Below, one piece after another: positions 16,581-63,862 of a stretch of DNA of 64,000 nt (positions are counted from its first letter, which is position 1; each line of letters opens with the position of its first letter). This DNA comes from a virus. Where the stretch lies: IMG/VR virus record IMGVR_UViG_3300042945_002173. One strand, given 5' to 3'. The notes beneath the pieces are model-generated. The model was not told the origin of the DNA. It worked only from the letters and a program-made list of their open reading frames with translations, and did not search any database. A program made the translations under genes and the position numbers.

Positions 16581-17000
16581 ATGTCAAATAACTATGATAG
16601 CATTGACAATGCCTTGAATATAAAAAGTGAAATAGTTAATGTTGAAAAAGAAACTCCAATTGTTAAGGTTGAAAGTTCTAGTAATGACATTAAAAAAGAT
16701 TATGAATATACAAGAGCAAATTTATATTCTCTTATAGAAAAGGGGCAAGAAGCCATTAATGGAATAATGGAACTTGCAGCAGAGAGTGATCAACCAAGAG
16801 CATATGAAGTTGCTGGTCAGTTGATTAAGAGTGTAGGTGATGTAACAGATAAATTGATTGACTTACAAAAGAAATTAAAAGATGTTGAGGAAGATACTGT
16901 AAAAACAACTAATAATGTTACTAATAATGCAGTGTTTGTTGGATCAACTTCGGAACTTTCAAAGTTACTTAAACAAGGTTTTCTAAATAATAAAGAATAG
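16581..17000 (+). CDS. g16: terminase small subunit gp16
   Basis: DYEYTR.NLY, PRAYEVAGQLIK, FVGSTSEL motifs. Confidence 0.92.
   Translation: MSNNYDSIDNALNIKSEIVNVEKETPIVKVESSSNDIKKDYEYTRANLYSLIEKGQEAINGIMELAAESDQPRAYEVAGQLIKSVGDVTDKLIDLQKKLKDVEEDTVKTTNNVTNNAVFVGSTSELSKLLKQGFLNNKE
16983..16989 (+). promoter_or_regulatory. late promoter CTAAATA
   Basis: TAAATA core 21 nt upstream of ATG 17011. Confidence 0.65.
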
Positions 17001-17010
17001 ATTTTTTCTT

Positions 17011-18768
17011 ATGAGTTGGTCTAACGATTATAAAAAATCAATAGACTGTGGAAATCCAAAAGGATTTTCGCAAAAGGCACATTGTGCTGCTCGTAGGAAA
17101 AGAAAAAGAGGTGAAGAAACCAAGTCTAAATCACCATTTAGCGAACAAAAAGAAATGAGCGAAACCCGTTACTGTAAGTTGTGTAGGAAAATAGAGCAAA
17201 GGGATGGATGCTCCTATGGACCTTTAATGTGGGATAGATATTCTACGCCGATTCTTACCATGAATCAGATTAAATATGATCGAAACCGACCTCATCCTGC
17301 CAATGAGTCAAAAGATCATGAATATTCAATGGCTCGCTCAGAGTTATCAACCATTGCGAAGGCGACTAAAAAACTTCAGAAAAAAATGAAGAAAGGTGAG
17401 GGTGAGATTGAAGCATGGGTTCAATCAAAGATTACAAAAGCAGCAGACTATATTGATACGGCAGCAGATTATGTAGATAGTGGTGAAATGAATAAAGAAG
17501 AAGTTGAAATATTAGAAGGTAAGAGAGACGGGAAATCAGCAAAAGATAAAGATTATTCTCTTCGTGATTGGTTTAAAGGTGGTGGATGGGTTCAAGCAGG
17601 TGGTAAGTATGATGGAAAACCTTGTGCTAAACAACCTGGACAAAAAACAAAACCATTCTGCCGCGATGCTGACGATAGAGCATCAATGAGTAAGGAAGAA
17701 AGAAATAAAAGAGCAGCAAAAAAACGTAAAGAAGACCCAAATCCAAATAGAAAAGGAAAGGCAAAGTTTGTAACTGTTGAACAAGTTGATGCCAGTAAGT
17801 ATGGAAAAACCCCAGATCAGATCTTACAGGATATTATAGATAAAGATAAAAAAGGACCAAACAAATACGGTGGTGGACAAGTAATTAAAACTGGTTTACA
17901 AAAAGCACATTTTGAACCAGAAGGTGAACAACTAGATGAACTGTGGGGTAAAGTTGCTATCGGTGCAGGTGCTGCCTTTATTCCATATCTTTTAAAAAAG
18001 TTCGCAAAACCAGCAGTTGATAAAGCAATTGATTCTCCTGCAACTGGTTCTGATGATTTGATTGATAAAATGAAGCAAAAAAGAGATGCTATTAATAAAG
18101 CAACTCAAAAAAATTCTTATGAACCAGAAGGTGATATGGTAGAAGAAAAAGACGCTTGTTATAAGAAGGTAAAGGCAAGGTATGATGTTTGGCCAAGTGC
18201 ATATGCTTCTGGCGCACTAGTCAAGTGCCGCAAAGTTGGTGCAAAAAATTGGGGAAATAAAACTAAAAAAGAAGGATATGAATTTTCTAATTGGAGAGAT
18301 GAATTCTTCCCAACAGAAGTTGAATCTGTAAATATTATTGAACCACAACCATTACAACCATCAAAGGGTATTGGAAGTGAAATTTTAGATGAGGCAGGTA
18401 AAAAGTGCTGGAAAGGTTACAAAAAATCAGGAACACAAGAACTGTTTGGTAAAACTTACAACCGTTGTGTAAAGGAAGGATATTCTGATTGGAGAACAGA
18501 GATTTCCGAAGATTGGCAATCAGTAAATCGTAAAGATAAAACTGATGGTCTAAGTCAAGCAGCAGTTGATGCTTATCGTCGTGAGAATCCAGGTTCAAAA
18601 CTTCAAACTGCGGTAACTGAAAAGAAACCAAAAGGAAAGAGAGCAAAGCGTCGTGCTAATTTCTGCCGACGTATGAAAGGGATGAAATCAAAACTCACAT
18701 CATCAAAAACAGCAAGAGATCCAGATTCAAGAATTAACAAAGCATTACGCCGTTGGAGGTGCAGATAA
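17011..18768 (+). CDS. modular basic protein, putative protease-processed internal-head polyprotein
   Basis: About 9 short Lys/Arg-rich modules, several with Cys pairs, separated by acidic linkers ending [LIV]xE. ORF is certain; function is inferred. Confidence 0.6.
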   Translation: MSWSNDYKKSIDCGNPKGFSQKAHCAARRKRKRGEETKSKSPFSEQKEMSETRYCKLCRKIEQRDGCSYGPLMWDRYSTPILTMNQIKYDRNRPHPANESKDHEYSMARSELSTIAKATKKLQKKMKKGEGEIEAWVQSKITKAADYIDTAADYVDSGEMNKEEVEILEGKRDGKSAKDKDYSLRDWFKGGGWVQAGGKYDGKPCAKQPGQKTKPFCRDADDRASMSKEERNKRAAKKRKEDPNPNRKGKAKFVTVEQVDASKYGKTPDQILQDIIDKDKKGPNKYGGGQVIKTGLQKAHFEPEGEQLDELWGKVAIGAGAAFIPYLLKKFAKPAVDKAIDSPATGSDDLIDKMKQKRDAINKATQKNSYEPEGDMVEEKDACYKKVKARYDVWPSAYASGALVKCRKVGAKNWGNKTKKEGYEFSNWRDEFFPTEVESVNIIEPQPLQPSKGIGSEILDEAGKKCWKGYKKSGTQELFGKTYNRCVKEGYSDWRTEISEDWQSVNRKDKTDGLSQAAVDAYRRENPGSKLQTAVTEKKPKGKRAKRRANFCRRMKGMKSKLTSSKTARDPDSRINKALRRWRCR

Positions 18769-19076
18769 TGAAAAGTTTTCAGCAGTTTATTTCAGAAAGT
18801 ATCACCATCAATGGTGATTTTAATGGAACTCTCAATGTAGGTTCCCCTCAACCCGAACAAGCAAGCGAGTCTTTCTTTGCTGATGTAGTTTGGGAAGGAA
18901 AGATGTATCGTTTAGAAGTAGAAGGCAAAATTCTTTCTAAGAATGAACTAGCAGAGCAAATTCAAGGAGAATATCCTGGTGCAATTGTTCATAACGTTTA
19001 TCCAAGTCAGGTAAATACTTCAAGAATTAAAAACGCACAAAGGTATCAACCAGAAAGATTGTCTTGGAGTGAGTGA
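18768..19076 (+). CDS. hypothetical protein with capsid-targeting-like N-terminus (MKSFQQFISE)
   Basis: ATG overlaps the upstream TAA (TAATG); N-terminus resembles the T4 internal-protein CTS. Confidence 0.7.
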   Translation: MKSFQQFISESITINGDFNGTLNVGSPQPEQASESFFADVVWEGKMYRLEVEGKILSKNELAEQIQGEYPGAIVHNVYPSQVNTSRIKNAQRYQPERLSWSE

Positions 19077-19079
19077 TTA

Positions 19080-20456
19080 ATGGCACAATTTAATAAAAAT
19101 ACTCAAGATTTTTTAAATCAAGAGAGAACTCTTTTTGAAGTGAATATGATCGCTAATAAAAATGGCGAGGTAGTTACACTTGACAACCCATTTCCAGTTA
19201 CTGGGACAATGGGAATTTCTACATCATCAACAGTATCAGTTACTCTACCTTCAACATCAACTGATGCATTTGGTAGACAAAGAATGTCTACCCCACTCAC
19301 ACTTTTTGATAGTTCCCACAGATACAGGGACAATAATCTTTGGAGTAGTTTAGTTGTTGGTACTGGTTCCACAGTTGGATTTGTAACGGCACAAGGTCTG
19401 ATCAATATTACTGTTGGTGTTGGAAGCACTGCATCAGTCATCAGAGAAACGACAAAAGTATTTTCATATCAACCAGGAAAATCATTACAAATATTAAATA
19501 CATTTGTATTCAACCCATCAAAAACAAATCTTCGCCAAAGAGTAGGATACTTTGGTGCAGATAATGGGATGTATTTGGAACTTGATGGAAGTAATTTATA
19601 TTTTGTAGAAAGAACATATGTTCCAGGAATTACAACAGAAACAAGAGTAGCACAAGCAAACTGGAACATTGATACAATGCTTGGTGCTGGACATTTAAAT
19701 CCATCTGGTGTCACATTAGATATTAGCAAAGCACAGATTATGTGGATGGATATTGAATGGTTAGGACTTGGAACTGTAAGACTAGGATTTGTAGTTAATG
19801 GGCAGTTTATTCATTGCCATTCATTCCATCACGCAAATATTATCAATACAACTTATATTACAACAGCATCATTACCTTTGAGATATGAGATTGCAAATAC
19901 CGGAATTACAACTAGTGCTAGCACACTCAAACAAGTTTGTTCTACTGTAATTTCAGAAGGTGGTTATGAACTTCGTGGATTGCAACAAGCAGTAGGAACA
20001 CCAGTTCAAACACCAGTCGATTTAACAACAGCAGGAACTTATTATACAGTTATATCAATTCGCCTCAAAGCAACACCAAATAGATTAGATGCAATTGTAA
20101 TTCTAACTGCACTTTCAATTCTTGGTATTACAAATAATGCAACTTATAACTGGCAAGTAAGAGCAACTGGAATATCTAATGGTGGAACTTGGACTGATAC
20201 TGGTCTCGATAGTGCTGTTGAATATAAGATTGATGGAGGAACTTATAGTGGTGGAAGAATATTAGCATCTGGATATCTGTACGGTTCCAATCAAGGTTCA
20301 ACGCCAGTAGATATTCTTAAAGAAGCATTATTTAAGTTCCAGTTAGAAAGGGATGCGTTAAGTGGAACACCATATGAACTTTCTATTGTATGTGCCTCTG
20401 ATGCTAATGGTGCAGATATTCACGCATCAATGGACTGGGAAGAAATTAGTAGGTAA
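19080..20456 (+). CDS. putative virion structural protein (beta-rich)
   Basis: DAFGRQRMS.P.TLFD, FSYQPGKS, DIEWLG.G.VR motifs seen in phage structural hypotheticals. Confidence 0.6.
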   Translation: MAQFNKNTQDFLNQERTLFEVNMIANKNGEVVTLDNPFPVTGTMGISTSSTVSVTLPSTSTDAFGRQRMSTPLTLFDSSHRYRDNNLWSSLVVGTGSTVGFVTAQGLINITVGVGSTASVIRETTKVFSYQPGKSLQILNTFVFNPSKTNLRQRVGYFGADNGMYLELDGSNLYFVERTYVPGITTETRVAQANWNIDTMLGAGHLNPSGVTLDISKAQIMWMDIEWLGLGTVRLGFVVNGQFIHCHSFHHANIINTTYITTASLPLRYEIANTGITTSASTLKQVCSTVISEGGYELRGLQQAVGTPVQTPVDLTTAGTYYTVISIRLKATPNRLDAIVILTALSILGITNNATYNWQVRATGISNGGTWTDTGLDSAVEYKIDGGTYSGGRILASGYLYGSNQGSTPVDILKEALFKFQLERDALSGTPYELSIVCASDANGADIHASMDWEEISR

Positions 20457-20461
20457 TTATT

Positions 20462-22138
20462 ATGAGTGAAGTTTATCTTGGTAATCCCAATCTAAAAAAA
20501 GCAAATACTCAAATTGAATTTACAGAAGAACAAATTATTGAGTTCCTCAAATGTAAAGAAGATCCTGTTTATTTTGCAAGGAATTATATTAAGATTGTGT
20601 CTCTTGATCACGGTCTAGTTCCTTTTGAGATGTATCCTTTTCAGGAAAGATTGATTGAAAACTTTCATAAGAATAGATTTAACATCTGTAAGATGCCCCG
20701 ACAGACGGGTAAGTCTACTACTTGTGTATCATATCTTTTACATTATGCAGTTTTTAACGATAATGTTAATATTGCAATTCTAGCAAACAAAGCATCAACT
20801 GCTAGGGATCTTCTTGGAAGATTACAACTTGCTTACGAAAACTTGCCTAAATGGATGCAACAAGGTATTATATCTTGGAATAAGGGTAGTTTAGAATTAG
20901 AAAATGGCTCCAAGATTTCATCTAACTCTACTTCTTCATCTGCTGTCCGAGGCGGATCCTATAATGTCATCTTTCTTGACGAGTTCGCTTTCATCCCGAA
21001 TCACATTGCTGATGACTTCTTTGCCTCTGTTTATCCTACTATTTCTTCTGGACAGAGCACGAAAGTAATTATCGTATCTACTCCACGCGGTATGAATCAC
21101 TTCTACCGAATGTGGCATGATGCTGAAAGATCAAAAAATGAATACGTGCCAACTGATGTTCATTGGTCAGAAGTTCCTGGTAGGGATGAGTTATGGAAAC
21201 AGCAAACTATTGCCAACACTTCTGAGCAGCAGTTTAAGGTTGAGTTTGAGTGTGAATTCTTAGGATCTGTCAATACTCTCATTAATCCATCCAAACTAAG
21301 AAATTTAGTTTATGAGGATCCAATTAAAAGAAATGCTGGACTAGACATTTATCAAAATCCAATAGAAGAAAATAATTATCTGATAACTGTGGACGTTGCC
21401 AGAGGTCTAGGTAATGATTACTCTGCTTTTATTGTTTTTGATATTACACAGTTTCCATACAAAGTTGTAGCAAAGTATAGAAATAATGAAATTAAACCGA
21501 TGTTATTTCCAAGTATTATTCACGAAGTAGCAAAGGCATATAATAATTCTTGGTTGTTAATTGAGGTTAATGATATTGGTGATCAGGTTGCTAATATTTT
21601 ACATTTTGATTTAGAATATGATAACGTTCTTATGTGTGCAATGAGAGGACGTGCTGGGCAAATTGTTGGATCTGGATTTAGTGGAAAGAAATCTCAACTT
21701 GGGGTAAGAATGACTTCTGCCGTTAAGAAGTTGGGTTGCTCTAATTTAAAGACTTTGTTGGAAGATGATAAGTTACTGACTGTTGATTATGACATTATAT
21801 CAGAACTTACAACATTTGCACAGAGGCACAATTCTTTTGAAGCGGAAGAGGGATGTAATGATGACCTTGCAATGTGTTTAGTTATTTTTTCTTGGTTAGT
21901 TGCTCAGGATTACTTCAAGGAAATGACGGACAATGATGTTCGTAAGAGAATTTATGAGGAACAGAAAAATCAGATAGAACAGGATATGGCACCTTTTGGA
22001 TTTATTCTAGATGGTTTGGATGATGATACATTTATAGATGAGGTAACTGGTGATAGATGGATGCTTGCGAAAAAATCAGAAGATAATTGGAATTTGGATG
22101 AGTATGGTGATAGATCTTATATGTGGGAATATAGATAA
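20462..22138 (+). CDS. g17: terminase large subunit gp17
   Basis: YLGNPNLK, Walker A PRQTGKST, Walker B IFLDEFAF, nuclease DVARG..DYS. Confidence 0.97.
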   Translation: MSEVYLGNPNLKKANTQIEFTEEQIIEFLKCKEDPVYFARNYIKIVSLDHGLVPFEMYPFQERLIENFHKNRFNICKMPRQTGKSTTCVSYLLHYAVFNDNVNIAILANKASTARDLLGRLQLAYENLPKWMQQGIISWNKGSLELENGSKISSNSTSSSAVRGGSYNVIFLDEFAFIPNHIADDFFASVYPTISSGQSTKVIIVSTPRGMNHFYRMWHDAERSKNEYVPTDVHWSEVPGRDELWKQQTIANTSEQQFKVEFECEFLGSVNTLINPSKLRNLVYEDPIKRNAGLDIYQNPIEENNYLITVDVARGLGNDYSAFIVFDITQFPYKVVAKYRNNEIKPMLFPSIIHEVAKAYNNSWLLIEVNDIGDQVANILHFDLEYDNVLMCAMRGRAGQIVGSGFSGKKSQLGVRMTSAVKKLGCSNLKTLLEDDKLLTVDYDIISELTTFAQRHNSFEAEEGCNDDLAMCLVIFSWLVAQDYFKEMTDNDVRKRIYEEQKNQIEQDMAPFGFILDGLDDDTFIDEVTGDRWMLAKKSEDNWNLDEYGDRSYMWEYR

Positions 22139-27451: not shown

Positions 27452-28102
27452 ATGAAACTCATCACAGAAGAAATTTCAAAAGTAGAATTTATTACCGAAG
27501 GTAAAGGATCTGCAAAAAAATCCTATATCAAAGGTATTTTCTTGCAGGCAGAACAAGTCAACAGAAATGGCAGAATGTATCCTCTTTCTATTATGGAAAG
27601 AGAGGTAAATCGCTATAATGAAGCATTTGTTCAAAAAGGTCGTGCTCTTGGAGAACTCGGTCACCCTGATGGACCTACCGTAAATCTTGATAGAGTTTCA
27701 CATAAAATTTGTGAACTTTATAAAGATGGTAATAATTTTATTGGTAAGGCACAACTTTTAGAAACTCCAATGGGTAAGATTGCAAAATCTCTCATTAGTG
27801 AGGGAGTTTGCCTTGGCGTTTCTTCTCGTGGTGTTGGTTCATTAAAGATGACCAATGAGGGTCATAAAGTTGTTGGTGAAGATTTTATGTTAGCAACTGC
27901 TGCTGATATCGTTGCCGACCCTTCTGCTCCTGACGCTTTTGTTCAGGGAATTATGGAAGGTAAAGAGTGGGTTTGGGAAGGTGGAATTCTTCGTGAAAGA
28001 CTTGCCGAGCAAACTCAAAAGAGAATTAATACTCTCGTAGATCAAAAAAGACTTGAAGAGCATAAGTTGAATTTATTCAACGATTTCCTCTCAAATCTTT
28101 AA
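27452..28102 (+). CDS. g21: prohead protease gp21
   Basis: NRNGRMYP, ALGELGHP, GVSSRGVGS, DIVADPSAPDA motifs. Confidence 0.97.
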   Translation: MKLITEEISKVEFITEGKGSAKKSYIKGIFLQAEQVNRNGRMYPLSIMEREVNRYNEAFVQKGRALGELGHPDGPTVNLDRVSHKICELYKDGNNFIGKAQLLETPMGKIAKSLISEGVCLGVSSRGVGSLKMTNEGHKVVGEDFMLATAADIVADPSAPDAFVQGIMEGKEWVWEGGILRERLAEQTQKRINTLVDQKRLEEHKLNLFNDFLSNL

Positions 28103-28142: not shown

Positions 28143-29225
28143 ATGTCCGTTGGTAGCAATTTACAAGAAATGGAAAACGTAGTAACCAAAGGGGCTGCAC
28201 CTGCTGAGCCAATGCCTTCGGCTGGTATTCCAGTTGAAGATCTCGGCGGTCCTACTCCTGATAATTATCGTCCAGACGACGATTCAGCAGCACTCAAAAC
28301 TCCTGGCGCAACTCTTGCTCAGGTCAAAGATGTTGTTAACGCAAAAGCGGTAAGAGCAGAAGAGACCGAAGTAGAGGAAGAAGTCATCGAAGAGGAGACT
28401 GAAGAGGAAGAGGATCTTGAAGGTGGCGAAGAAGGTGGTGAAGAGGAAGTTGAAGAGGAAGAAGAAGAAGTCGTAGAAGAAGATTTCAACATCGAAGAAG
28501 ATGTTAATGCTCTTCTAGCGGGTGAAGAACTCTCTGAAGAATTCCAAGAGAAAGCACGTACAATCTTTGAGGCAGCAATTAAATCAAGAGTTGCTGAAAT
28601 CAAAGAATCCCTTCAAGAATCGTATGCTGCTGCTCTTGTAGAAGAGCTTGATGCAATTAAGACTCAACTCACCGAAAGAGTTGATTCTTATCTTGAGTAT
28701 GTTGCTGATGAGTGGTTCCAAGAGAATGCACTCGCAGTAGAGCACGGTCTTAAGACCGAAATGACTGAATCATTCCTTGTAGGAATGAAGAGTCTTTTTG
28801 AAGATCATTATGTAACAATCCCTGAAGATAGATATGATGTAATCGAGAGCATGGTAGATAAACTTGATGAAATGGAAGAAAAACTCAACGAGCAAATCGA
28901 AAGAAACGTTGCTCTGAATAGAAGATTAGCTGAGTCGGTTGCTGATGTAATCTTTGCAGATGTCGCTGAGGGTCTCGCACTTTCTCAGAAGGACAAACTC
29001 GCTTCTCTTGCTGAAAATGTTGAGTTTGAAAGTGAAGCAGACTATCGTGAGAAGCTAGTAACTCTGAGGGAATCATATTTCCCATCAAACGCTGGTACTC
29101 AAAGAAGCGCAAGTGAGAATCTTTCGGAAGAAGTAACCACAGATGAGAAAGAGGCTCTTAATGAGTCCATTTCTCCAATGATGGCTGCTTACTTACAGAC
29201 TCTTTCAAGAGCTTCTAAAAAGTGA
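28143..29225 (+). CDS. g22: prohead core scaffold gp22
   Basis: Very acidic; LSEEFQEKARTIFEAA, VDSYLEYVADEW motifs; lies before g23. Confidence 0.95.
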   Translation: MSVGSNLQEMENVVTKGAAPAEPMPSAGIPVEDLGGPTPDNYRPDDDSAALKTPGATLAQVKDVVNAKAVRAEETEVEEEVIEEETEEEEDLEGGEEGGEEEVEEEEEEVVEEDFNIEEDVNALLAGEELSEEFQEKARTIFEAAIKSRVAEIKESLQESYAAALVEELDAIKTQLTERVDSYLEYVADEWFQENALAVEHGLKTEMTESFLVGMKSLFEDHYVTIPEDRYDVIESMVDKLDEMEEKLNEQIERNVALNRRLAESVADVIFADVAEGLALSQKDKLASLAENVEFESEADYREKLVTLRESYFPSNAGTQRSASENLSEEVTTDEKEALNESISPMMAAYLQTLSRASKK

Positions 29226-29277: not shown

Positions 29278-30675
29278 ATGCAAATGTTCAATGCCGAGCA
29301 TCTGCAGGAGAAGTGGGCACCAATCCTCGACTATGATGGTCTTGATCCAATCAAAGATTCACATCGTAGAGCGGTAACCGCAATCCTGCTTGAAAACCAA
29401 GAAAGAGAACTTCGTGAAGAGAGAGCATTCCTCTCCGAAGCTCCAACCGTAAACACCAACAGTGGCGCTAATGCAGGTTTCTCTGCTGGTGCTTCTGCCC
29501 CTGTTGCTGGTTTCGACCCTGTTCTGATCTCCCTGATTAGACGTTCAATGCCTAACCTGGTCGCTTATGACCTCGCTGGCGTTCAACCAATGAACGGTCC
29601 TACTGGACTGATCTTCGCAATGCGCTCTAAGTACACCAACATGAGCGGCACCGAAGCACTGTTCAACGAAGCAGATACTGCATTCTCTGGACAGGACAGC
29701 GGATTCAACCTCACCAACGGATTTACCGCAGGTAACGTTGGTATGGGTACAACCACTCAGCGTGGAACCAATCCTGGTCTTCTGGATGCTACCTATCCTG
29801 CAACCGGTGACGCAACTACCTACAACGTAGGTCAGGGTATGCGTACCGATGATGCAGAGAATCTTGGTCAGACCAGTGGCGACCACTTTAACGAGATGGC
29901 ATTCTCGATCGAGAAAGTCACCGTTACTGCTAAGTCACGTGCTCTGAAAGCTGAGTACTCGCTCGAACTCGCACAAGACCTGAAGGCAATTCACGGTCTG
30001 AATGCAGAAGCTGAGCTTGCTAACATCCTCAGCACTGAGATCCTCGCTGAAATCAACCGCGAAGTTATCCGTACCATCTATAACGTTGCTGAGTCTGGTG
30101 CTCAGGCAAACGTTGCTACCGCTGGTACTTTCGACCTCGACGTTGACTCCAACGGTCGTTGGTCAGTTGAGAAGTTCAAGGGTCTGATCTTCCAGATCGA
30201 GCGTGACGCAAACGCTATCGCCCAGAGAACTCGTCGTGGCAAGGGTAACATGATCCTCTGCTCTGCTGACGTTGCTTCGGCACTCACCATGGCAGGTGTT
30301 CTTGATTACACCCCTGCACTCAACGCTAACCTCAACGTTGATGACACTGGTAACACCTTCGCTGGTGTTCTGCAAGGTAAGTATCGTGTTTATATCGATC
30401 CTTATGCTGCAAACGTATCTGCTAACCAGTACTACGTTGTTGGTTATAAAGGTTCTTCTCCTTATGATGCTGGTCTGTTCTACTGCCCATATGTACCTCT
30501 CCAGATGGTACGTGCAGTTGGTCAGGACACCTTCCAGCCTAAGATCGGCTTCAAGACTCGTTATGGAATTGTTGCTAACCCATTCTCGCAGGGTACTAGC
30601 GCAATCAGCGGTGCTGGTCTTGATCGTAACGCAAACCGTTACTACAGAAGAGTCAAGGTTACCAATTTAATGTGA
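29278..30675 (+). CDS. g23: major capsid protein gp23
   Basis: GVQPMNGPTGLIFAMR, SRALKAEYSLELAQDLKAIHGL, FQPKIGFKTRYG. Confidence 0.99.
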   Translation: MQMFNAEHLQEKWAPILDYDGLDPIKDSHRRAVTAILLENQERELREERAFLSEAPTVNTNSGANAGFSAGASAPVAGFDPVLISLIRRSMPNLVAYDLAGVQPMNGPTGLIFAMRSKYTNMSGTEALFNEADTAFSGQDSGFNLTNGFTAGNVGMGTTTQRGTNPGLLDATYPATGDATTYNVGQGMRTDDAENLGQTSGDHFNEMAFSIEKVTVTAKSRALKAEYSLELAQDLKAIHGLNAEAELANILSTEILAEINREVIRTIYNVAESGAQANVATAGTFDLDVDSNGRWSVEKFKGLIFQIERDANAIAQRTRRGKGNMILCSADVASALTMAGVLDYTPALNANLNVDDTGNTFAGVLQGKYRVYIDPYAANVSANQYYVVGYKGSSPYDAGLFYCPYVPLQMVRAVGQDTFQPKIGFKTRYGIVANPFSQGTSAISGAGLDRNANRYYRRVKVTNLM

Positions 30676-30915: not shown

Positions 30916-31356
30916 GTGAAAACTTTTAAACAGTTTCAAGAACAAGCACAACCAAGTTCAATATTTAAGTGGACCAAAAGACCAGAGTCAACGGACAAAA
31001 ATGTTGAAACTAGTTCTTATGGTCCAGGACTTTACGGAAACAAGACAGCAGATGGAACTGTTTTAACTCCAAAAACAAGAGGAGTTGCTCACAAAACTTT
31101 ACCACTTGGAACTCAGGTAAGAATTACAGATCCGAGAACTGGAAGATCAGTGACTGCACCTGTTATTGATAGGGGTCCATATCACGGTAATAGAGAGTAT
31201 GATTTGACAACAGGAACCACTCAACAACTCGGTTATCCAAATTATAAAGAATTTGGTGCAAGAACCCTTAAAGTCGGACCATTACCAAAACCAAAACTAA
31301 GTCCTATTTTTAAATATCCAGAAAAACCAAAATCAATCTTTAACTGGAAAAAATAA
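30916..31356 (+). CDS. RlpA-like (DPBB) lytic transglycosylase with CTS-like N-terminus
   Basis: SSYGPGLYGNKTADG, AHKTLPLGT.VRIT, VIDRGPY...REYDLT are RlpA motifs; GTG start gives MKTFKQFQE. Confidence 0.8.
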   Translation: MKTFKQFQEQAQPSSIFKWTKRPESTDKNVETSSYGPGLYGNKTADGTVLTPKTRGVAHKTLPLGTQVRITDPRTGRSVTAPVIDRGPYHGNREYDLTTGTTQQLGYPNYKEFGARTLKVGPLPKPKLSPIFKYPEKPKSIFNWKK

Positions 31357-32341: not shown

Positions 32342-33028
32342 ATGAAAACTTTTAGAGAGTTTATATCAGAGGCGGGGGCAACTTCTACAAGATTGGGTAT
32401 AAGAACACAAGAAATTATTAACCGTTCTCGAAATACTCCAACAAGTTTGTCTGCACCATATACTTCTTCAAATCCAAGTCCACAAGAACTTGCAGATCGT
32501 CGAAGAGATTTTGGTAATTTAAAACCTGGACAAACTAGTTTAGATACATTACATAATTTATTCAATTACGCAAAACAAAGAGCACAAGGAATTTATCCAG
32601 AAACAAAACATTCGCAAAGAACAAGAGAGAATCCAATTAGAAGTAGACCAACTCCACCAAATGCAGTGAAGACTAGTAGTGGTTCACTCACAAGAACTTA
32701 TCAACCAGTTAGAAGCACTCAAAATCCTTTAACTCCTTCTGTTAGAGATGAAAGAAGAGCAGCAGCAGGATCATCTGGTCAAGGTTCAACACCAAAAGGT
32801 CCAAAACTTTATAGACAATCTGTAAGTGGCGTTTCTGTTGGCGATGATCCGTTTGCAGTTATAAAATCTGCTAGTACACAACCAAAACCACTCCCCAAAC
32901 CCAGAGGAACAAGAGGTGGTTCTTCATCATTACCAAATTTAGGACGTCCTGGAATTGGATTTAAAATGGATGTTGGACATAAACCAGGTGACAGATATGG
33001 AATAAGTGGTATTGGTCTTGCAGACTGA
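32342..33028 (+). CDS. basic low-complexity protein with CTS-like N-terminus (MKTFREFISE), putative internal head protein
   Basis: N-terminal motif; R/S/T/P-rich body; flanked by a late promoter and a terminator. Confidence 0.65.
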   Translation: MKTFREFISEAGATSTRLGIRTQEIINRSRNTPTSLSAPYTSSNPSPQELADRRRDFGNLKPGQTSLDTLHNLFNYAKQRAQGIYPETKHSQRTRENPIRSRPTPPNAVKTSSGSLTRTYQPVRSTQNPLTPSVRDERRAAAGSSGQGSTPKGPKLYRQSVSGVSVGDDPFAVIKSASTQPKPLPKPRGTRGGSSSLPNLGRPGIGFKMDVGHKPGDRYGISGIGLAD

Positions 33029-60411: not shown

Positions 60412-60627
60412 ATGGATAAAAATATTCAAGGTTTTATCAAAGAGTTTAAAGGTAAAGAGTTTAAAGACTTTGTATTATTTGTATTTAAAAAAATGCAAAA
60501 AGATATTGATTTAAAAAAGAAAAAGCAGGATAAGGATAAATATATAAAGGTCAGACAAAATTTTTTAAATTATATTATTGCAAACGAAAAAGCAATAACT
60601 ATTGAACTCAATAAGAAATATAAGTAA
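60412..60627 (+). CDS. small Lys-rich hypothetical protein
   Basis: 71-aa ORF abutting both neighbours. Confidence 0.55.
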   Translation: MDKNIQGFIKEFKGKEFKDFVLFVFKKMQKDIDLKKKKQDKDKYIKVRQNFLNYIIANEKAITIELNKKYK

Positions 60628-61856
60628 TGAAAAGTTTTTTCCAATTTTTAACAGAAACAACTGCTTCCCAACAGGCAGCAAGACTTGGGTTGCAAGGTGA
60701 TGGGCACGGCGGATGGTATGATAGAAAAACGGGAGAGTTTGTCGCAAAGACTGAAAAAGGTAGGTTGAAGTTTTATAATAAGCGTCAAGGAATTGGTAAA
60801 GATCCTGCTCAGACAGAGACTGAAAAGAATATCTCAGATCCAAATTTTGTAGATCCCGTATTACAACAACAGCAAGCACCTGCTCCTCAACCAGTTGCTC
60901 AGGAAGCACCACCTGTAAATTTCCTTCCTGTTGAAAAGACAAAAGGAACATTAACGATTGCATTTGGTCGTTTCAATCCTCCACATCTGGGACATCTTCA
61001 ACTGATGGATACTGCTGCTGCATCGGCAGAGCAAGAAGGTAGTGACTATATGATTATTCCTTCTCGTACACAAGATAAGAAAAAGAATCCCCTTGATGCT
61101 GATACAAAAGTTGCATTGATGAGATCAATGTTCCCTCAGCATAGTGAGAGAATTGTAAATGATGCCAACACCAGAACTATTTTTGATGTTCTTAAAAAAG
61201 CACATAATGATGGATATACGAATGTGAGAATCGTTGGTGGTGCCGATAGAGTGAATGAATTTAACAAACTTGCCAATAATTACAATGGAAATCTTTATGC
61301 CTTTGATAATATTGAGGTAGTTTCTGCTGGTGACCGAGATCCAGACTCTGATGGTGTTGAAGGTCTTTCTGCATCCAGAATGCGTCTTGCTGCTGCTGAA
61401 GGTGATTTCAAAACATTTCGTTTAGGAATGCCACCAGATATGAGACCAAAAGATGCAAGAGCAGTTTTTGATACTGTTCGTGCTGCAATGGGCATTCAAG
61501 ATCAGGTTGCAGAAGTTTGGGAGATTGCACCTAAGTTTGATCAGGGTACTTTGCGCGAAAACTATGTTAGAGAAGCAATCTTTAAGATTGGGCAGTTGGT
61601 TGAGAATCTAAATACTGGTCTTATTGGACGCATTATACGTCGTGGAACTAATTACTTGATCTGTGTCACAGAAGACCATATTATGTTTAAGTCTTGGATT
61701 AAGGATGTGATGGAAGCAAAACTTACAAATAGAAGTGGTGTTCCTGCTGATCAAAGACTTGTTGGAACTGATGCATATCGTGAATATGTTGAGACGATGG
61801 TTCCTGGACGTACTTGGGGAAGACAATTCATAAATAAGTATAGAAAAAGTAAGTAA
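60627..61856 (+). CDS. cytidylyltransferase-like (HxGH) nucleotidyltransferase with CTS-like N-terminus
   Basis: FGRFNPPHLGH, KNPL, VGGADR, SASRMR motifs; starts MKSFFQFLTE. Confidence 0.85.
   Translation: MKSFFQFLTETTASQQAARLGLQGDGHGGWYDRKTGEFVAKTEKGRLKFYNKRQGIGKDPAQTETEKNISDPNFVDPVLQQQQAPAPQPVAQEAPPVNFLPVEKTKGTLTIAFGRFNPPHLGHLQLMDTAAASAEQEGSDYMIIPSRTQDKKKNPLDADTKVALMRSMFPQHSERIVNDANTRTIFDVLKKAHNDGYTNVRIVGGADRVNEFNKLANNYNGNLYAFDNIEVVSAGDRDPDSDGVEGLSASRMRLAAAEGDFKTFRLGMPPDMRPKDARAVFDTVRAAMGIQDQVAEVWEIAPKFDQGTLRENYVREAIFKIGQLVENLNTGLIGRIIRRGTNYLICVTEDHIMFKSWIKDVMEAKLTNRSGVPADQRLVGTDAYREYVETMVPGRTWGRQFINKYRKSK
61829..61836 (+). promoter_or_regulatory. late promoter CATAAATA
   Basis: 34 nt upstream of ATG 61871. 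Confidence 0.7.
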
Positions 61857-61870
61857 TCAATCTTTCCCCA

Positions 61871-63862
61871 ATGAGTAACAATATTTTTGAGGAACTTCCA
61901 TCCAGAAAAGGTGGTGAAGCAAAACCTGGTGCAGATGCTGCTGCTGGCATTGAAAAGAAGGCAAGACAGCTTGTTTATGATTCTCGTTATGAAGTTAAAA
62001 AAATGTTAGCAGGTAAAAGAGCGGATCCTGCATCGCAAGAAAGAATGGTTCTTGGAAGAATTGCTAAATCAACTGCAATTCCTGCTGTAAAGGCAAGAGC
62101 AAGACAAATGGTTTCTAAGAAAGCCGCTGTTGCGGAAGATTTTATTCCTATGATGGAAGATGCTGCTGCAATTAATATTGCAAATGCAATGTTTAAGGTT
62201 TTTGTTGAGGGTGTTGAAGAAATTGTTCCAGATTACTTAGAGGAACTGCACGGACTAGACGACAAGAAATATAAGATTAGAGTTACAGATCCTAAGACTG
62301 GAAACTCTTATGTCAGATATGGAACTCGTGAAAAAATCACTCAACTTAGATCAAAAGGTCTGAAAGTTGAACTCACCGAGTATGGTGAACCAAGAGAGGG
62401 AGAAAAAAAGAGAGGTGAAGAAACTGCACGTGCTACCGGTGGTGGACGCCCTGGTGGTAAAAAACCAAAACTAGATCCAGTTGGCAAGGAAGATAGTGAT
62501 CCAGACAATGATGGTAAGCATAATGATCCAAATGACAAGTACATTATGAAGCGTCGTGCTGCAATTGGTGCTGCCATTGAGAAGAGAAAGACAGTTTCTT
62601 CTTCTTATGAAATGGATGGGCAGATGATTGATGAGAGTGAAATTGGTGATAGAGCAAGAAGAGTTGTTCGTGATCAGCGTCAAGGAGTTCATGGTGATGC
62701 TGATGATATCAAACAAAATATGGATGCGATTAATCTAAATCTTTTGAAGATGAGACCATATGGAGTTAAAGGATTTCCATCTGTTAAAAAGGACACTAAA
62801 AAAACTACACAAGTTGCTCATTTTGAACCAGAGGGTAAATTAGTCGAATCTAAAAAATCTAAGAAGCATAAAAAAACATCCGAACCACGCTGGCAAGATA
62901 GTGATGGTGATGGTAAATGGTATGAACCTGGTGAAGATGTAAAAAAAGAAGATTATCTGTGGGCTGAAGGAACTGATAGTACAGAAGGTCAAGGTAAGAA
63001 AATAAATCCAACCAAAGTTGACAATTATTCTTCTGGTGTTGTTAAAATTTCTCCAGAAGATGGAACTCAAACTATTTCAACTGGACCAAAAGCAGTTTAT
63101 GCACATACTGAACTTGAAGGTGAACTGATTTCTGAAAAAGCAATGAGTAAAGCACAACAGCGTTTTATGGGAATGGTTTATGCCCGTAAAAAGGGTGAGA
63201 TGAAAAAAGGTGAGGCATCACCTGAGGTTGAAGCAGCAGCAAAAGGTATGACCAAGAAAGAAGCAAAGAAATTTGCTAAGACAAAGCACAAGGGTCTTCC
63301 TGAAAAGATTGAAGAATCTGGATATTTTCCATCTAAAGAGTCTCAGAGAGCAGATGAGAAAAAGTATGCATTAAGTCGTGATGGTATGCCAGGACAAGTA
63401 AAACACAGAACAGTCAAAAATCAGACTAAGGTTAATGAAGAGCAGTGCTCATCCGAAGACGAAAAGAAGAAGGACACTCGTGGCGATTATGCAAAGATTA
63501 ACTTGATCAAGAATAAGTTGAGGGCGATGGGTGCTAAGAATCCAATCGTAATGGTTGCTAATGAGAATGTTGAGGCAGGTCCAATTCTTCCTGGTGAAAA
63601 AGGTAAGAGAGTTTATCCAAAGGGCCAAGAACCAAAGGCAACTGGTGCAAAACTTCCCCCCCTTCAAAATGCTGGTTTTGAACCAACAGGTAATGTAATT
63701 TCTGAAAGAGATGATGAACCAGGTGAAGAGGATTGGAGACCAGATGTTCGTGCTCATAATAAAGCAGTAGGATATCGTGGTGGGTATAATAAGTATAGGG
63801 GAACTCGTAAACCAAAACCAGAAAATCCTGGACCTGGATCACAAGCTAAACCAGCAGATTGA
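61871..63862 (+). CDS. modular charged protein, putative protease-processed internal-head polyprotein
   Basis: Four [HSG][YFT]E.xGxx[LIV]xE linkers shared with the 17011 ORF; DPVGKED.D.DNDG, WQDSDGDG and SKAQQRFMGMV modules. Confidence 0.6.
   Translation: MSNNIFEELPSRKGGEAKPGADAAAGIEKKARQLVYDSRYEVKKMLAGKRADPASQERMVLGRIAKSTAIPAVKARARQMVSKKAAVAEDFIPMMEDAAAINIANAMFKVFVEGVEEIVPDYLEELHGLDDKKYKIRVTDPKTGNSYVRYGTREKITQLRSKGLKVELTEYGEPREGEKKRGEETARATGGGRPGGKKPKLDPVGKEDSDPDNDGKHNDPNDKYIMKRRAAIGAAIEKRKTVSSSYEMDGQMIDESEIGDRARRVVRDQRQGVHGDADDIKQNMDAINLNLLKMRPYGVKGFPSVKKDTKKTTQVAHFEPEGKLVESKKSKKHKKTSEPRWQDSDGDGKWYEPGEDVKKEDYLWAEGTDSTEGQGKKINPTKVDNYSSGVVKISPEDGTQTISTGPKAVYAHTELEGELISEKAMSKAQQRFMGMVYARKKGEMKKGEASPEVEAAAKGMTKKEAKKFAKTKHKGLPEKIEESGYFPSKESQRADEKKYALSRDGMPGQVKHRTVKNQTKVNEEQCSSEDEKKKDTRGDYAKINLIKNKLRAMGAKNPIVMVANENVEAGPILPGEKGKRVYPKGQEPKATGAKLPPLQNAGFEPTGNVISERDDEPGEEDWRPDVRAHNKAVGYRGGYNKYRGTRKPKPENPGPGSQAKPAD

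Follow-up and report, generated by a model that had tools for sequence, protein, structure and literature searches.

A modular basic protein of a T4-like cyanophage as a candidate prohead-processed cargo polyprotein

The internal proteins (IPs) IPI, IPII and IPIII of phage T4, together with Alt, are basic, lysine-rich cargo of the prohead core, which is trimmed by the protease gp21 after L/I-x-E, remains with the genome and is ejected into the host (PMC9026906, PMC3012670). The T4 DNA encloses about 1000 molecules of internal protein, whose lysines contact phosphates (PMC3012670), and the repertoire is variable and non-essential (PMC9026906, PMC3012670). Cleavage by gp21 takes place after the Glu of L/I-X-E, and an Asp at position P1 of the targeting peptide blocks processing (PMC9026906). 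The gene considered here lies in a 64,000-nucleotide stretch of viral DNA (IMG/VR record IMGVR_UViG_3300042945_002173, hereafter the window) from a T4-like cyanomyophage, whose closest isolate is Synechococcus phage S-SRM01 (nucleotide identity of about 78% for parts of the region). At 17011-18768 (+), it encodes a modular basic protein of 585 amino acids (aa), called P0001, which is probably a cargo polyprotein processed by the prohead protease.

Multiple cuts after x-x-Glu by a protease of the gp21 family are described for the T4 prohead core proteins gp22, gp67 and gp68, and for the inner-body or ejection proteins of phages phiKZ, 201phi2-1 and SPN3US (PMC9026906). Polyvalent proteins, known from phages and conjugative elements, carry many effector domains per chain, with shuffled content; they are delivered with the DNA and have been proposed to be cut after delivery (Iyer et al. 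2017, PMC5512222). P0001 resembles each of these systems in part. Sibling genes of its family have leaders nearly identical to the T4 leader MKTYQEFIAE, but T4 IPs and Alt are made as one protein per gene with one cut and an N-terminal capsid-targeting sequence (CTS), whereas P0001 has no such sequence and consists of many unrelated mini-modules, with a predicted cut before each. Pfam finds only DUF6321 in P0001 and PHROGs only families of unknown function, a result obtained with no direct comparison with IP sequences. As in the T4 core and phiKZ-type proteins, P0001 would be head-internal and cut several times after Glu; the former are, however, scaffold or large ejection proteins whose fragments are pieces or propeptides of one protein, whereas the predicted fragments of P0001 are autonomous, shuffled domains that elsewhere form separate genes. 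With polyvalent proteins, P0001 shares the presence of many unrelated domains (about ten segments) and an architecture that varies between relatives. Polyvalent proteins are nevertheless large, with enzymatic domains and usually their own metallopeptidase (MPTase), whereas P0001 has non-enzymatic mini-domains of 30-85 aa and no peptidase domain detected by Pfam, and the cutter proposed for it is the prohead protease acting in trans.

P0001 is a member of a known, uncharacterised virion protein family. It matches phrog_727 over most of its length (E 8.2e-92, residues 108-584) and the Pfam family DUF6321 (PF19846) at its C-terminus (E 7.7e-13, 49.3 bits against a gathering cutoff of 28.5, residues 508-582), and it is assigned to T4-GC119 because this is the annotation of its homologs PSSM2_123 of P-SSM2 and gp060 of S-P4. 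T4-GC119 has been described as a 'hypothetical protein' within a mobile cassette (Sullivan et al. 2010, PMC3037559). It was detected as a structural protein in purified S-SM1 virions, with 13 peptide counts, is not in S-PM2, and in Syn9 is present yet undetected (PMC3037559 Table S8). These T4-GC119, phrog_727 or DUF6321 proteins of cyanophages occupy the same place near g16 as P0001. A DUF6321 protein of S-SCSM1 carries the UniProt name 'Virion protein', although its open reading frame (ORF) could not be verified in the S-SCSM1 paper. The family is very large: matches at E <= 1e-3, with displaced stretches, were obtained to 7578 clusters (50% identity), and a word-based homolog search yielded at least 8000 candidates. 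The literature searchable here mentions phrog_727/T4-GC119 only as hypothetical or structural, and describes no modules, junction signals or processing for it; these are, in this sense, new, and the proposed mechanism is a variation on T4-type targeting and processing of head cargo.

An earlier note on this DNA had read the ORF as a chain of small peptides, and its observation of a modular polyprotein is confirmed, including the coordinates, the strand, the length and all the motifs that it quoted. P0001 contains 90 Lys, 39 Arg, 43 Asp, 43 Glu and 13 Cys. It was split into eleven segments, which were mapped on 268 homologs with phmmer:

Residues 1-34: segment A
Residues 48-82: segment B
Residues 98-168: segment C
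Residues 178-222: segment D
Residues 223-258: segment D2, a basic helix
Residues 259-303: segment E
Residues 308-372: segment F, hydrophobic
Residues 378-418: segment G, with the WPSAYASG motif
Residues 419-458: segment H, acidic
Residues 460-492: segment I, a beta-hairpin
Residues 501-585: segment K, corresponding to DUF6321

The earlier note counted about nine modules and peptides of 25-90 aa; in the present analysis, the conserved segments number about ten or eleven, and the predicted products, of 39-141 aa, about seven. The modules do not keep a constant order, the architectures A-C-D-D2-G-H-I-K, A-D-G-B-C-H-I-K, D-D2-I-G-K and C-I-D-D2-B-G all being seen among the mapped homologs. Some regularities are found: A is N-terminal in every homolog where it was mapped, K is C-terminal in most architectures, D2 usually follows D, and C usually follows B, though C is also found without B. 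The whole protein, modeled with AlphaFold2 from an alignment of 60 collinear homologs, adopts no global fold (predicted template modeling score, pTM, 0.20). Islands with a predicted local distance difference test score (pLDDT) of 70-80 correspond to A (itself 70-79), B, C, D/D2, G, I and K, and are separated by segments below 50 (residues 37-49, 81-102, 158-180, 246-266, 279-351, 357-379, 417-460 and 489-500). All of the proposed junctions fall within these segments or at their edge. Module C is predicted as a helical hairpin, while module F (pLDDT of about 24-48) has no confident fold. The separate mini-domains, the shuffled order and the standalone genes that the earlier note had proposed to look for are thus all found, and the modules behave as independent units.

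With Pfam, neither the whole protein (E 0.01) nor ten separate pieces of it (E 1) gives a peptidase or enzyme domain; among the ten pieces, module G matches DUF5872 only below threshold (E 0.014, 16.5 bits, cutoff 27.5), and this match is not relied on. The family profile finds no match among PDB sequences at E up to 1. More generally, the modules match neither solved structures nor families of known function in profile and fold searches. With the whole model, only generic helical-hairpin matches are obtained (residues 90-165, Z <= 6.7). Folded alone, DUF6321 is a five-helix domain (pLDDT 83.7, pTM 0.66), for which the best match among PDB representatives has an uninformative Z of 4.3, the matches among viral models are other DUF6321 proteins only, and the ESM Atlas gives nothing above 0.83, all matches there being viral hypothetical proteins.

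The module borders carry a signal resembling that of a protease site. The modules, most of which are basic, are connected by acidic, disordered linkers with hydrophobic-x-Glu at their end. The five junctions quoted earlier are present in P0001, as EILE169↓G, QLDE310↓L, MVEE378/379↓K, ILDE461↓A and ISE500↓D (the arrow marks the proposed cut), and a sixth, FSE45↓Q, is backed by a gene boundary in phage Bellamy. The L/I-x-E motif itself stands at module borders in disordered segments at ILE169, LDE310, LDE461 and ISE500. Since column-wise statistics on MAFFT alignments are blurred by indels except at E500, counts were anchored on invariant module-start motifs and restricted to distinct upstream contexts. 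The signal was defined as [LIVMF]-x-E ending at the module start (for D and I, 1-2 residues before the anchor), against a background of 1.8% per residue. It is found in 131 of the 141 contexts of module K (anchor DWQ), 72 of 74 for module I (KKCW) and 41 of 44 for module D (RDGKSA); all 17 contexts of module F (LWG) have L/I-x-E, and module G (KDACY) shows the signal in 115/188. For modules D, F, I and K, these frequencies go well beyond chance, as does the fixed number of Cys per module. An acidic P1 over all junctions is Glu in 369 cases and Asp in a single one, with a variable P2, although hydrophobic-x-E and hydrophobic-x-D occur at 1.8:1 overall in the same proteins. At the best-aligned junction, E500 is conserved in 60/60 homologs and P3 is hydrophobic in 59/60 (L24, F20, I10, V4, M1), P2 again being variable. 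In addition, [LI]xE is depleted within modules (84 observed vs 130 expected from shuffles) and enriched outside them (702 vs 525). Lack of conservation, with K mostly found at this place in homologs, and a Pro at P1' led to the rejection of IIE444↓P as a junction. Linkers of the type SNWRxEL.E keep an aromatic residue at the equivalent of CTS position 4. As far as sequence comparison can tell, the junction specificity is that reported for T4 gp21. The window itself holds a gp21 homolog (Peptidase_S77), along with gp23 as a control substrate, in which FLSE54↓A lies upstream of the Pfam Gp23 domain, at the expected position for the propeptide.

The N-termini of related genes point in the same direction. 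In T4, IPII and IPIII start with MKTYQEFIAE, as read from the T4 record. Comparable leaders are seen in P-TIM40_114 (MKNFAQYIEE, followed by DUF6321 only, 89 aa) and P-SSM7_194 (MKTYSQFIEE), in homolog P0356 (MKTYKEFILE, then straight into module I), in homologs P0230 and P0384, where a CTS-like leader immediately precedes module D, and in 320-400-aa polyproteins in T4-like contexts, which start with MKTFSQFLLE or MKPFSQFISE. Similar sequences (KSFAKFMAE, KTFNQFVTE) also form the internal linkers before DUF6321 in some homologs. In phage Bellamy, gene 122 (51 aa), directly upstream of the polyprotein, encodes MKSFKQFQE followed by SWSNKYKKSIDC, which is module A, and ends at the position equivalent to FSE45 of the query; residues 2-45 of P0001 therefore correspond to a mature standalone peptide elsewhere. 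The window also contains a cytidylyltransferase with the leader MKSFFQFLTE (60627-61856 (+), phrog_395, Pfam CTP_transf_like, T4-GC190 family). This family is enzymatic, yet is repeatedly found in cyanophage virions, which supports the leader as a working packaging signal in these phages.

The same modules occur in phages without a T4-type head. Cyanopodovirus P-SCSP1k has a standalone plain DUF6321 gene (84 aa, L004:2459-2713) between its major capsid and tail tubular protein genes; the product may thus be virion-associated in this T7-like phage, without a T4-type signal. Plain standalone DUF6321 genes are also found in pelagiphage HTVC027P and Planktothrix phage Pra-JY27, and module G stands alone as gp70 (56 aa) of Roseobacter phage CRP-902. 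None of these podovirus, pelagiphage, roseophage and Planktothrix-phage copies has the junction signal. Module G is a standalone gene in locus L154 too. Leaders and neighbors of DUF6321 genes were compared over 80 IMG/VR loci. The 37 plain standalone genes (MAKTP, then DUF6321) have no neighbor resembling any gene of the window, whereas the genes with a CTS-like leader have a T4-like neighbor (a T4-GC190 cytidylyltransferase homolog or gp43) in 10 out of 14 cases (Fisher p 8e-8). Given the plain N-termini in non-T4 phages, the hydrophobic-x-Glu signal is therefore not part of the domains themselves and goes with the T4-type assembly system.

In the proposed mechanism, the precursor would be synthesized late from the g16-g17 operon, as its position suggests, and would enter the prohead core; a homolog is known from purified S-SM1 virions. 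The gp21-type Peptidase_S77 would then cut after the linker Glu residues E45, E169, E310, E378/379, E461 and E500. About seven peptides of 39-141 aa, including the DUF6321 peptide, would be released:

17011-17145 (+): product 1, residues 1-45, module A, ends FSE45, 5.2 kDa
17146-17517 (+): product 2, residues 46-169, modules B-C, ends ILE169, 14.4 kDa
17518-17940 (+): product 3, residues 170-310, modules D-D2-E, ends LDE310, 15.8 kDa
17941-18147 (+): product 4, residues 311-378/379, hydrophobic module F, starts LWGK, 7.4 kDa
18145-18393 (+): product 5, residues 379/380-461, module G and acidic H, ends LDE461, 9.5 kDa
18394-18510 (+): product 6, residues 462-500, module I, ends ISE500, 4.6 kDa
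18511-18765 (+): product 7, residues 501-585, module K (DUF6321), 9.9 kDa, isoelectric point 11.4, net charge +19

By analogy with the T4 internal proteins, the lysine-rich peptides would stay bound up with the genome in the capsid and accompany it into the host. That single modules are so highly conserved between phages infecting cyanobacteria, SAR11 and Roseobacter may point to a universal target, for instance nucleic acid, while the variable module content may point to an accessory role in an arms race, as for the T4 internal proteins. The earlier interpretation, a precursor cut by gp21 into cationic peptides that may bind DNA or act on membranes, is partly supported: the comparative evidence from junctions and leaders is strong, whereas cutting by gp21 is itself deduced from sequence comparison alone.

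Several points weigh against processing in the head. The published virion proteomics consulted give counts without peptide ends (the S-SCSM1 supplement has no peptide list); cleavage and head location are matters of inference, and peptide function purely so. The junction statistics use related sequences, and their z-scores are therefore inflated. At module G, the signal is seen in only about 60-65% of contexts, and the conserved VKE489 and VTE537 are located inside modules I and K or at their borders, which means that more than the tripeptide is needed to define cuts. Hydrophobic-x-Glu could also be kept for another cause, for example linker structure or recombination joints. Finally, P0001 starts with MSWSNDYKKS and, like most large family members, has no leader of the MKTYQEFIAE type, which is a weak point of the proposed entry into the prohead core. 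It may be guessed that the basic modules are drawn to an acidic tract of gp22, or that the internal linkers serve for targeting. The gp22 scaffold of the window (28143-29225 (+)) has a long, nearly pure Glu tract, EETEVEEEVIEEETEEEEDLEGGEEGGEEEVEEEEEEVVEE, at residues of about 73-115, which could attract basic cargo electrostatically.

Part of this evidence would also suit a virion protein that stays uncleaved, as beads on a string, with linked modules acting jointly, perhaps in the head as a string that binds DNA multivalently. In that case, the acidic linkers with hydrophobic-x-Glu would be flexible spacers, or joints conserved for recombination and module shuffling. The published tryptic counts are compatible with a full-length protein, the linker cassette [FY]EPEG..[LIV].E is repeated in two genes of the window and could be a recombination joint, and the missing N-terminal leader fits this explanation as well. 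It is nevertheless unlikely, as a spacer or recombination role accounts neither for the Glu:Asp ratio of 369:1 at P1 next to a variable P2, nor for the absence of the signal in the same modules of non-T4 phages, nor for the fact that certain linkers and leaders are almost identical to the processed CTS of T4. Another explanation is that hydrophobic-x-Glu and the CTS-like elements serve for docking to the scaffold core and are uncut, or cut at some junctions only, with few large fragments in the virion. In the T4 CTS, the residues for targeting (4, 7) and for processing (8, 10) are separable (PMC9026906); the SNWRxEL.E linkers have their aromatic residue at position 4, and the junctions of module G are less regular. 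The positions conserved at junctions (hydrophobic P3 and Glu P1) are, however, those of processing and not those of targeting, which makes docking without full cleavage quite improbable.

P0001 might also not be head cargo, acting instead as a tail, neck or surface accessory or being a co-purifying non-structural protein, in which case the junction motif would have nothing to do with gp21. Its gene adjoins neck and sheath genes (gp13-gp15, gp18), the S-SM1 homolog was detected in virions without an assigned location, and standalone modules of small phages, such as HTVC027P, occur among small non-structural genes. A module content and order that vary are poorly suited to a fixed place in a symmetric assembly, the CTS-like leaders of sibling genes indicate the head, and the cytidylyltransferase of the window has the same type of leader in a family found in cyanophage virions even though it is an enzyme. 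A location outside the head is thus very improbable, and prohead processing of a cargo polyprotein is still the preferred explanation.

The cysteines of P0001 are distributed as C13/C25 in A, C55/C58/C67 in B, C205/C217 in D, C383/C406 in G, C466/C486 in I and C552/C584 in K, in agreement with the six modules with a Cys pair or triplet reported earlier. Cys counts were made over 95-257 distinct instances per module. Module A has two Cys in 95/95 instances, module D in 128/129, module G in 167/168 and module I in 190/192, while module B has three in 102/102. Module K has two (180 instances) or four (76 instances), never three. A DUF6321 subtype (for example P0226:587-669 and L046:4657-4905) has MHNIDC..PDKxICK in place of KLTSxKT..DPDSRINK, a joint gain of two Cys, from two to four. 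A gain of Cys in pairs would favor disulfide staples over metal sites; on the basis of this strict pairing, the Cys pairs may be disulfide staples in the oxidized virion. In module B (17152-17330 (+), residues 48-106, with the start of module C), the motif CxxC...C always has three Cys and is normally followed by module C, starting HPxNExKDHE; a Cys3-His metal site across both modules is possible.

A broader reading sees a combinatorial cargo system in a pool of tiny, conserved, Cys-paired basic domains. The pool (DUF6321, the WPSAYASG module, the CW.GY hairpin and others) would be common to several marine phage families. Its modules could be arranged freely, behind linkers that descend from the CTS and are cut by the protease; they would be packed in the head and freed as single peptides. 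They would be locked by disulfides in the oxidized virion and injected with the DNA, and reduction in the host cytoplasm would activate them as effectors against host defense or for DNA protection. Taken jointly, all these parts make a doubtful proposition. Few viruses of the ocean are as abundant as T4-like cyanophages and, to our knowledge, almost nothing is known about the cargo that they deliver besides DNA. If P0001 is indeed processed cargo, varying sets of small peptides reach the cell through a very widespread gene family (>7,500 clusters at 50% identity) according to a simple rule, namely hydrophobic-x-Glu ahead of each module. Several 'domains of unknown function' would gain a function, the capsid-targeting and processing logic of T4 would reach from single proteins to shuffled polyproteins, and a sequence rule would be available for predicting head cargo in metagenomes.

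The gene order around P0001 is gp13, gp14, gp15, g16, the polyprotein ORF, a 102-aa gene, the gene of a 458-aa virion structural protein and g17. The earlier note had placed the ORF between the terminase genes; it does directly follow g16, but is not the only gene there, since the 102-aa and 458-aa genes intervene before g17. The main genes are as follows:

16581-17000 (+): g16, terminase small subunit, directly upstream of the polyprotein gene (Pfam / PHROGs)
17011-18768 (+): P0001, modular basic protein, 585 aa, phrog_727 / T4-GC119 family, DUF6321 at the C-terminus
18768-19076 (+): 102-aa gene, phrog_1742, CTS-like leader MKSFQQFISE (PHROGs)
19080-20456 (+): virion structural protein, 458 aa, phrog_1645 (PHROGs)
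20462-22138 (+): g17, terminase large subunit (Pfam / PHROGs)
27452-28102 (+): gp21 homolog, prohead core serine protease, Peptidase_S77 (PF03420, E 1.2e-39), the proposed processing enzyme
29278-30675 (+): gp23, major capsid protein, N-terminal propeptide region ending ..AFLSE54↓APTV, which fits L-x-E

The polyprotein gene starts 10 nucleotides past the stop codon of g16, and its TAA overlaps the ATG of the next gene (TAATG). For the 102-aa gene, the TTG start at 18753 given in the ORF list is probably wrong, the ATG at 18768 in this overlap being the alternative. A scan for sigma-70 promoters and terminators around the polyprotein gene gave no signal exceeding shuffles, which is consistent with co-transcription, and the gene is therefore regarded as part of a late structural operon. 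Searching the rest of the window with the modules by tblastn revealed no extra copies (all E >= 0.5).

Elsewhere in the window, CTS-like leaders are found on two other late genes, MKTFKQFQE on a 146-aa protein (30916-31356 (+)) and MKTFREFISE on a 228-aa Ser/Pro/Arg-rich protein (32342-33028 (+)). In P-SSM7 and in IMG/VR loci, homologs of the cytidylyltransferase adjoin standalone DUF6321 genes with a CTS-like leader. The next gene of the window after the cytidylyltransferase encodes a 663-aa protein (61871-63862 (+)) that has the same linker grammar as P0001, with SYEMDGQMIDE, HFEPEGKLVE, TELEGELISE and GFEPTGNVISE, of which TELEGELISE immediately precedes a DUF3008 domain (residues 424-479). 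Judging from these linkers, the 663-aa protein is probably another processed cargo polyprotein.

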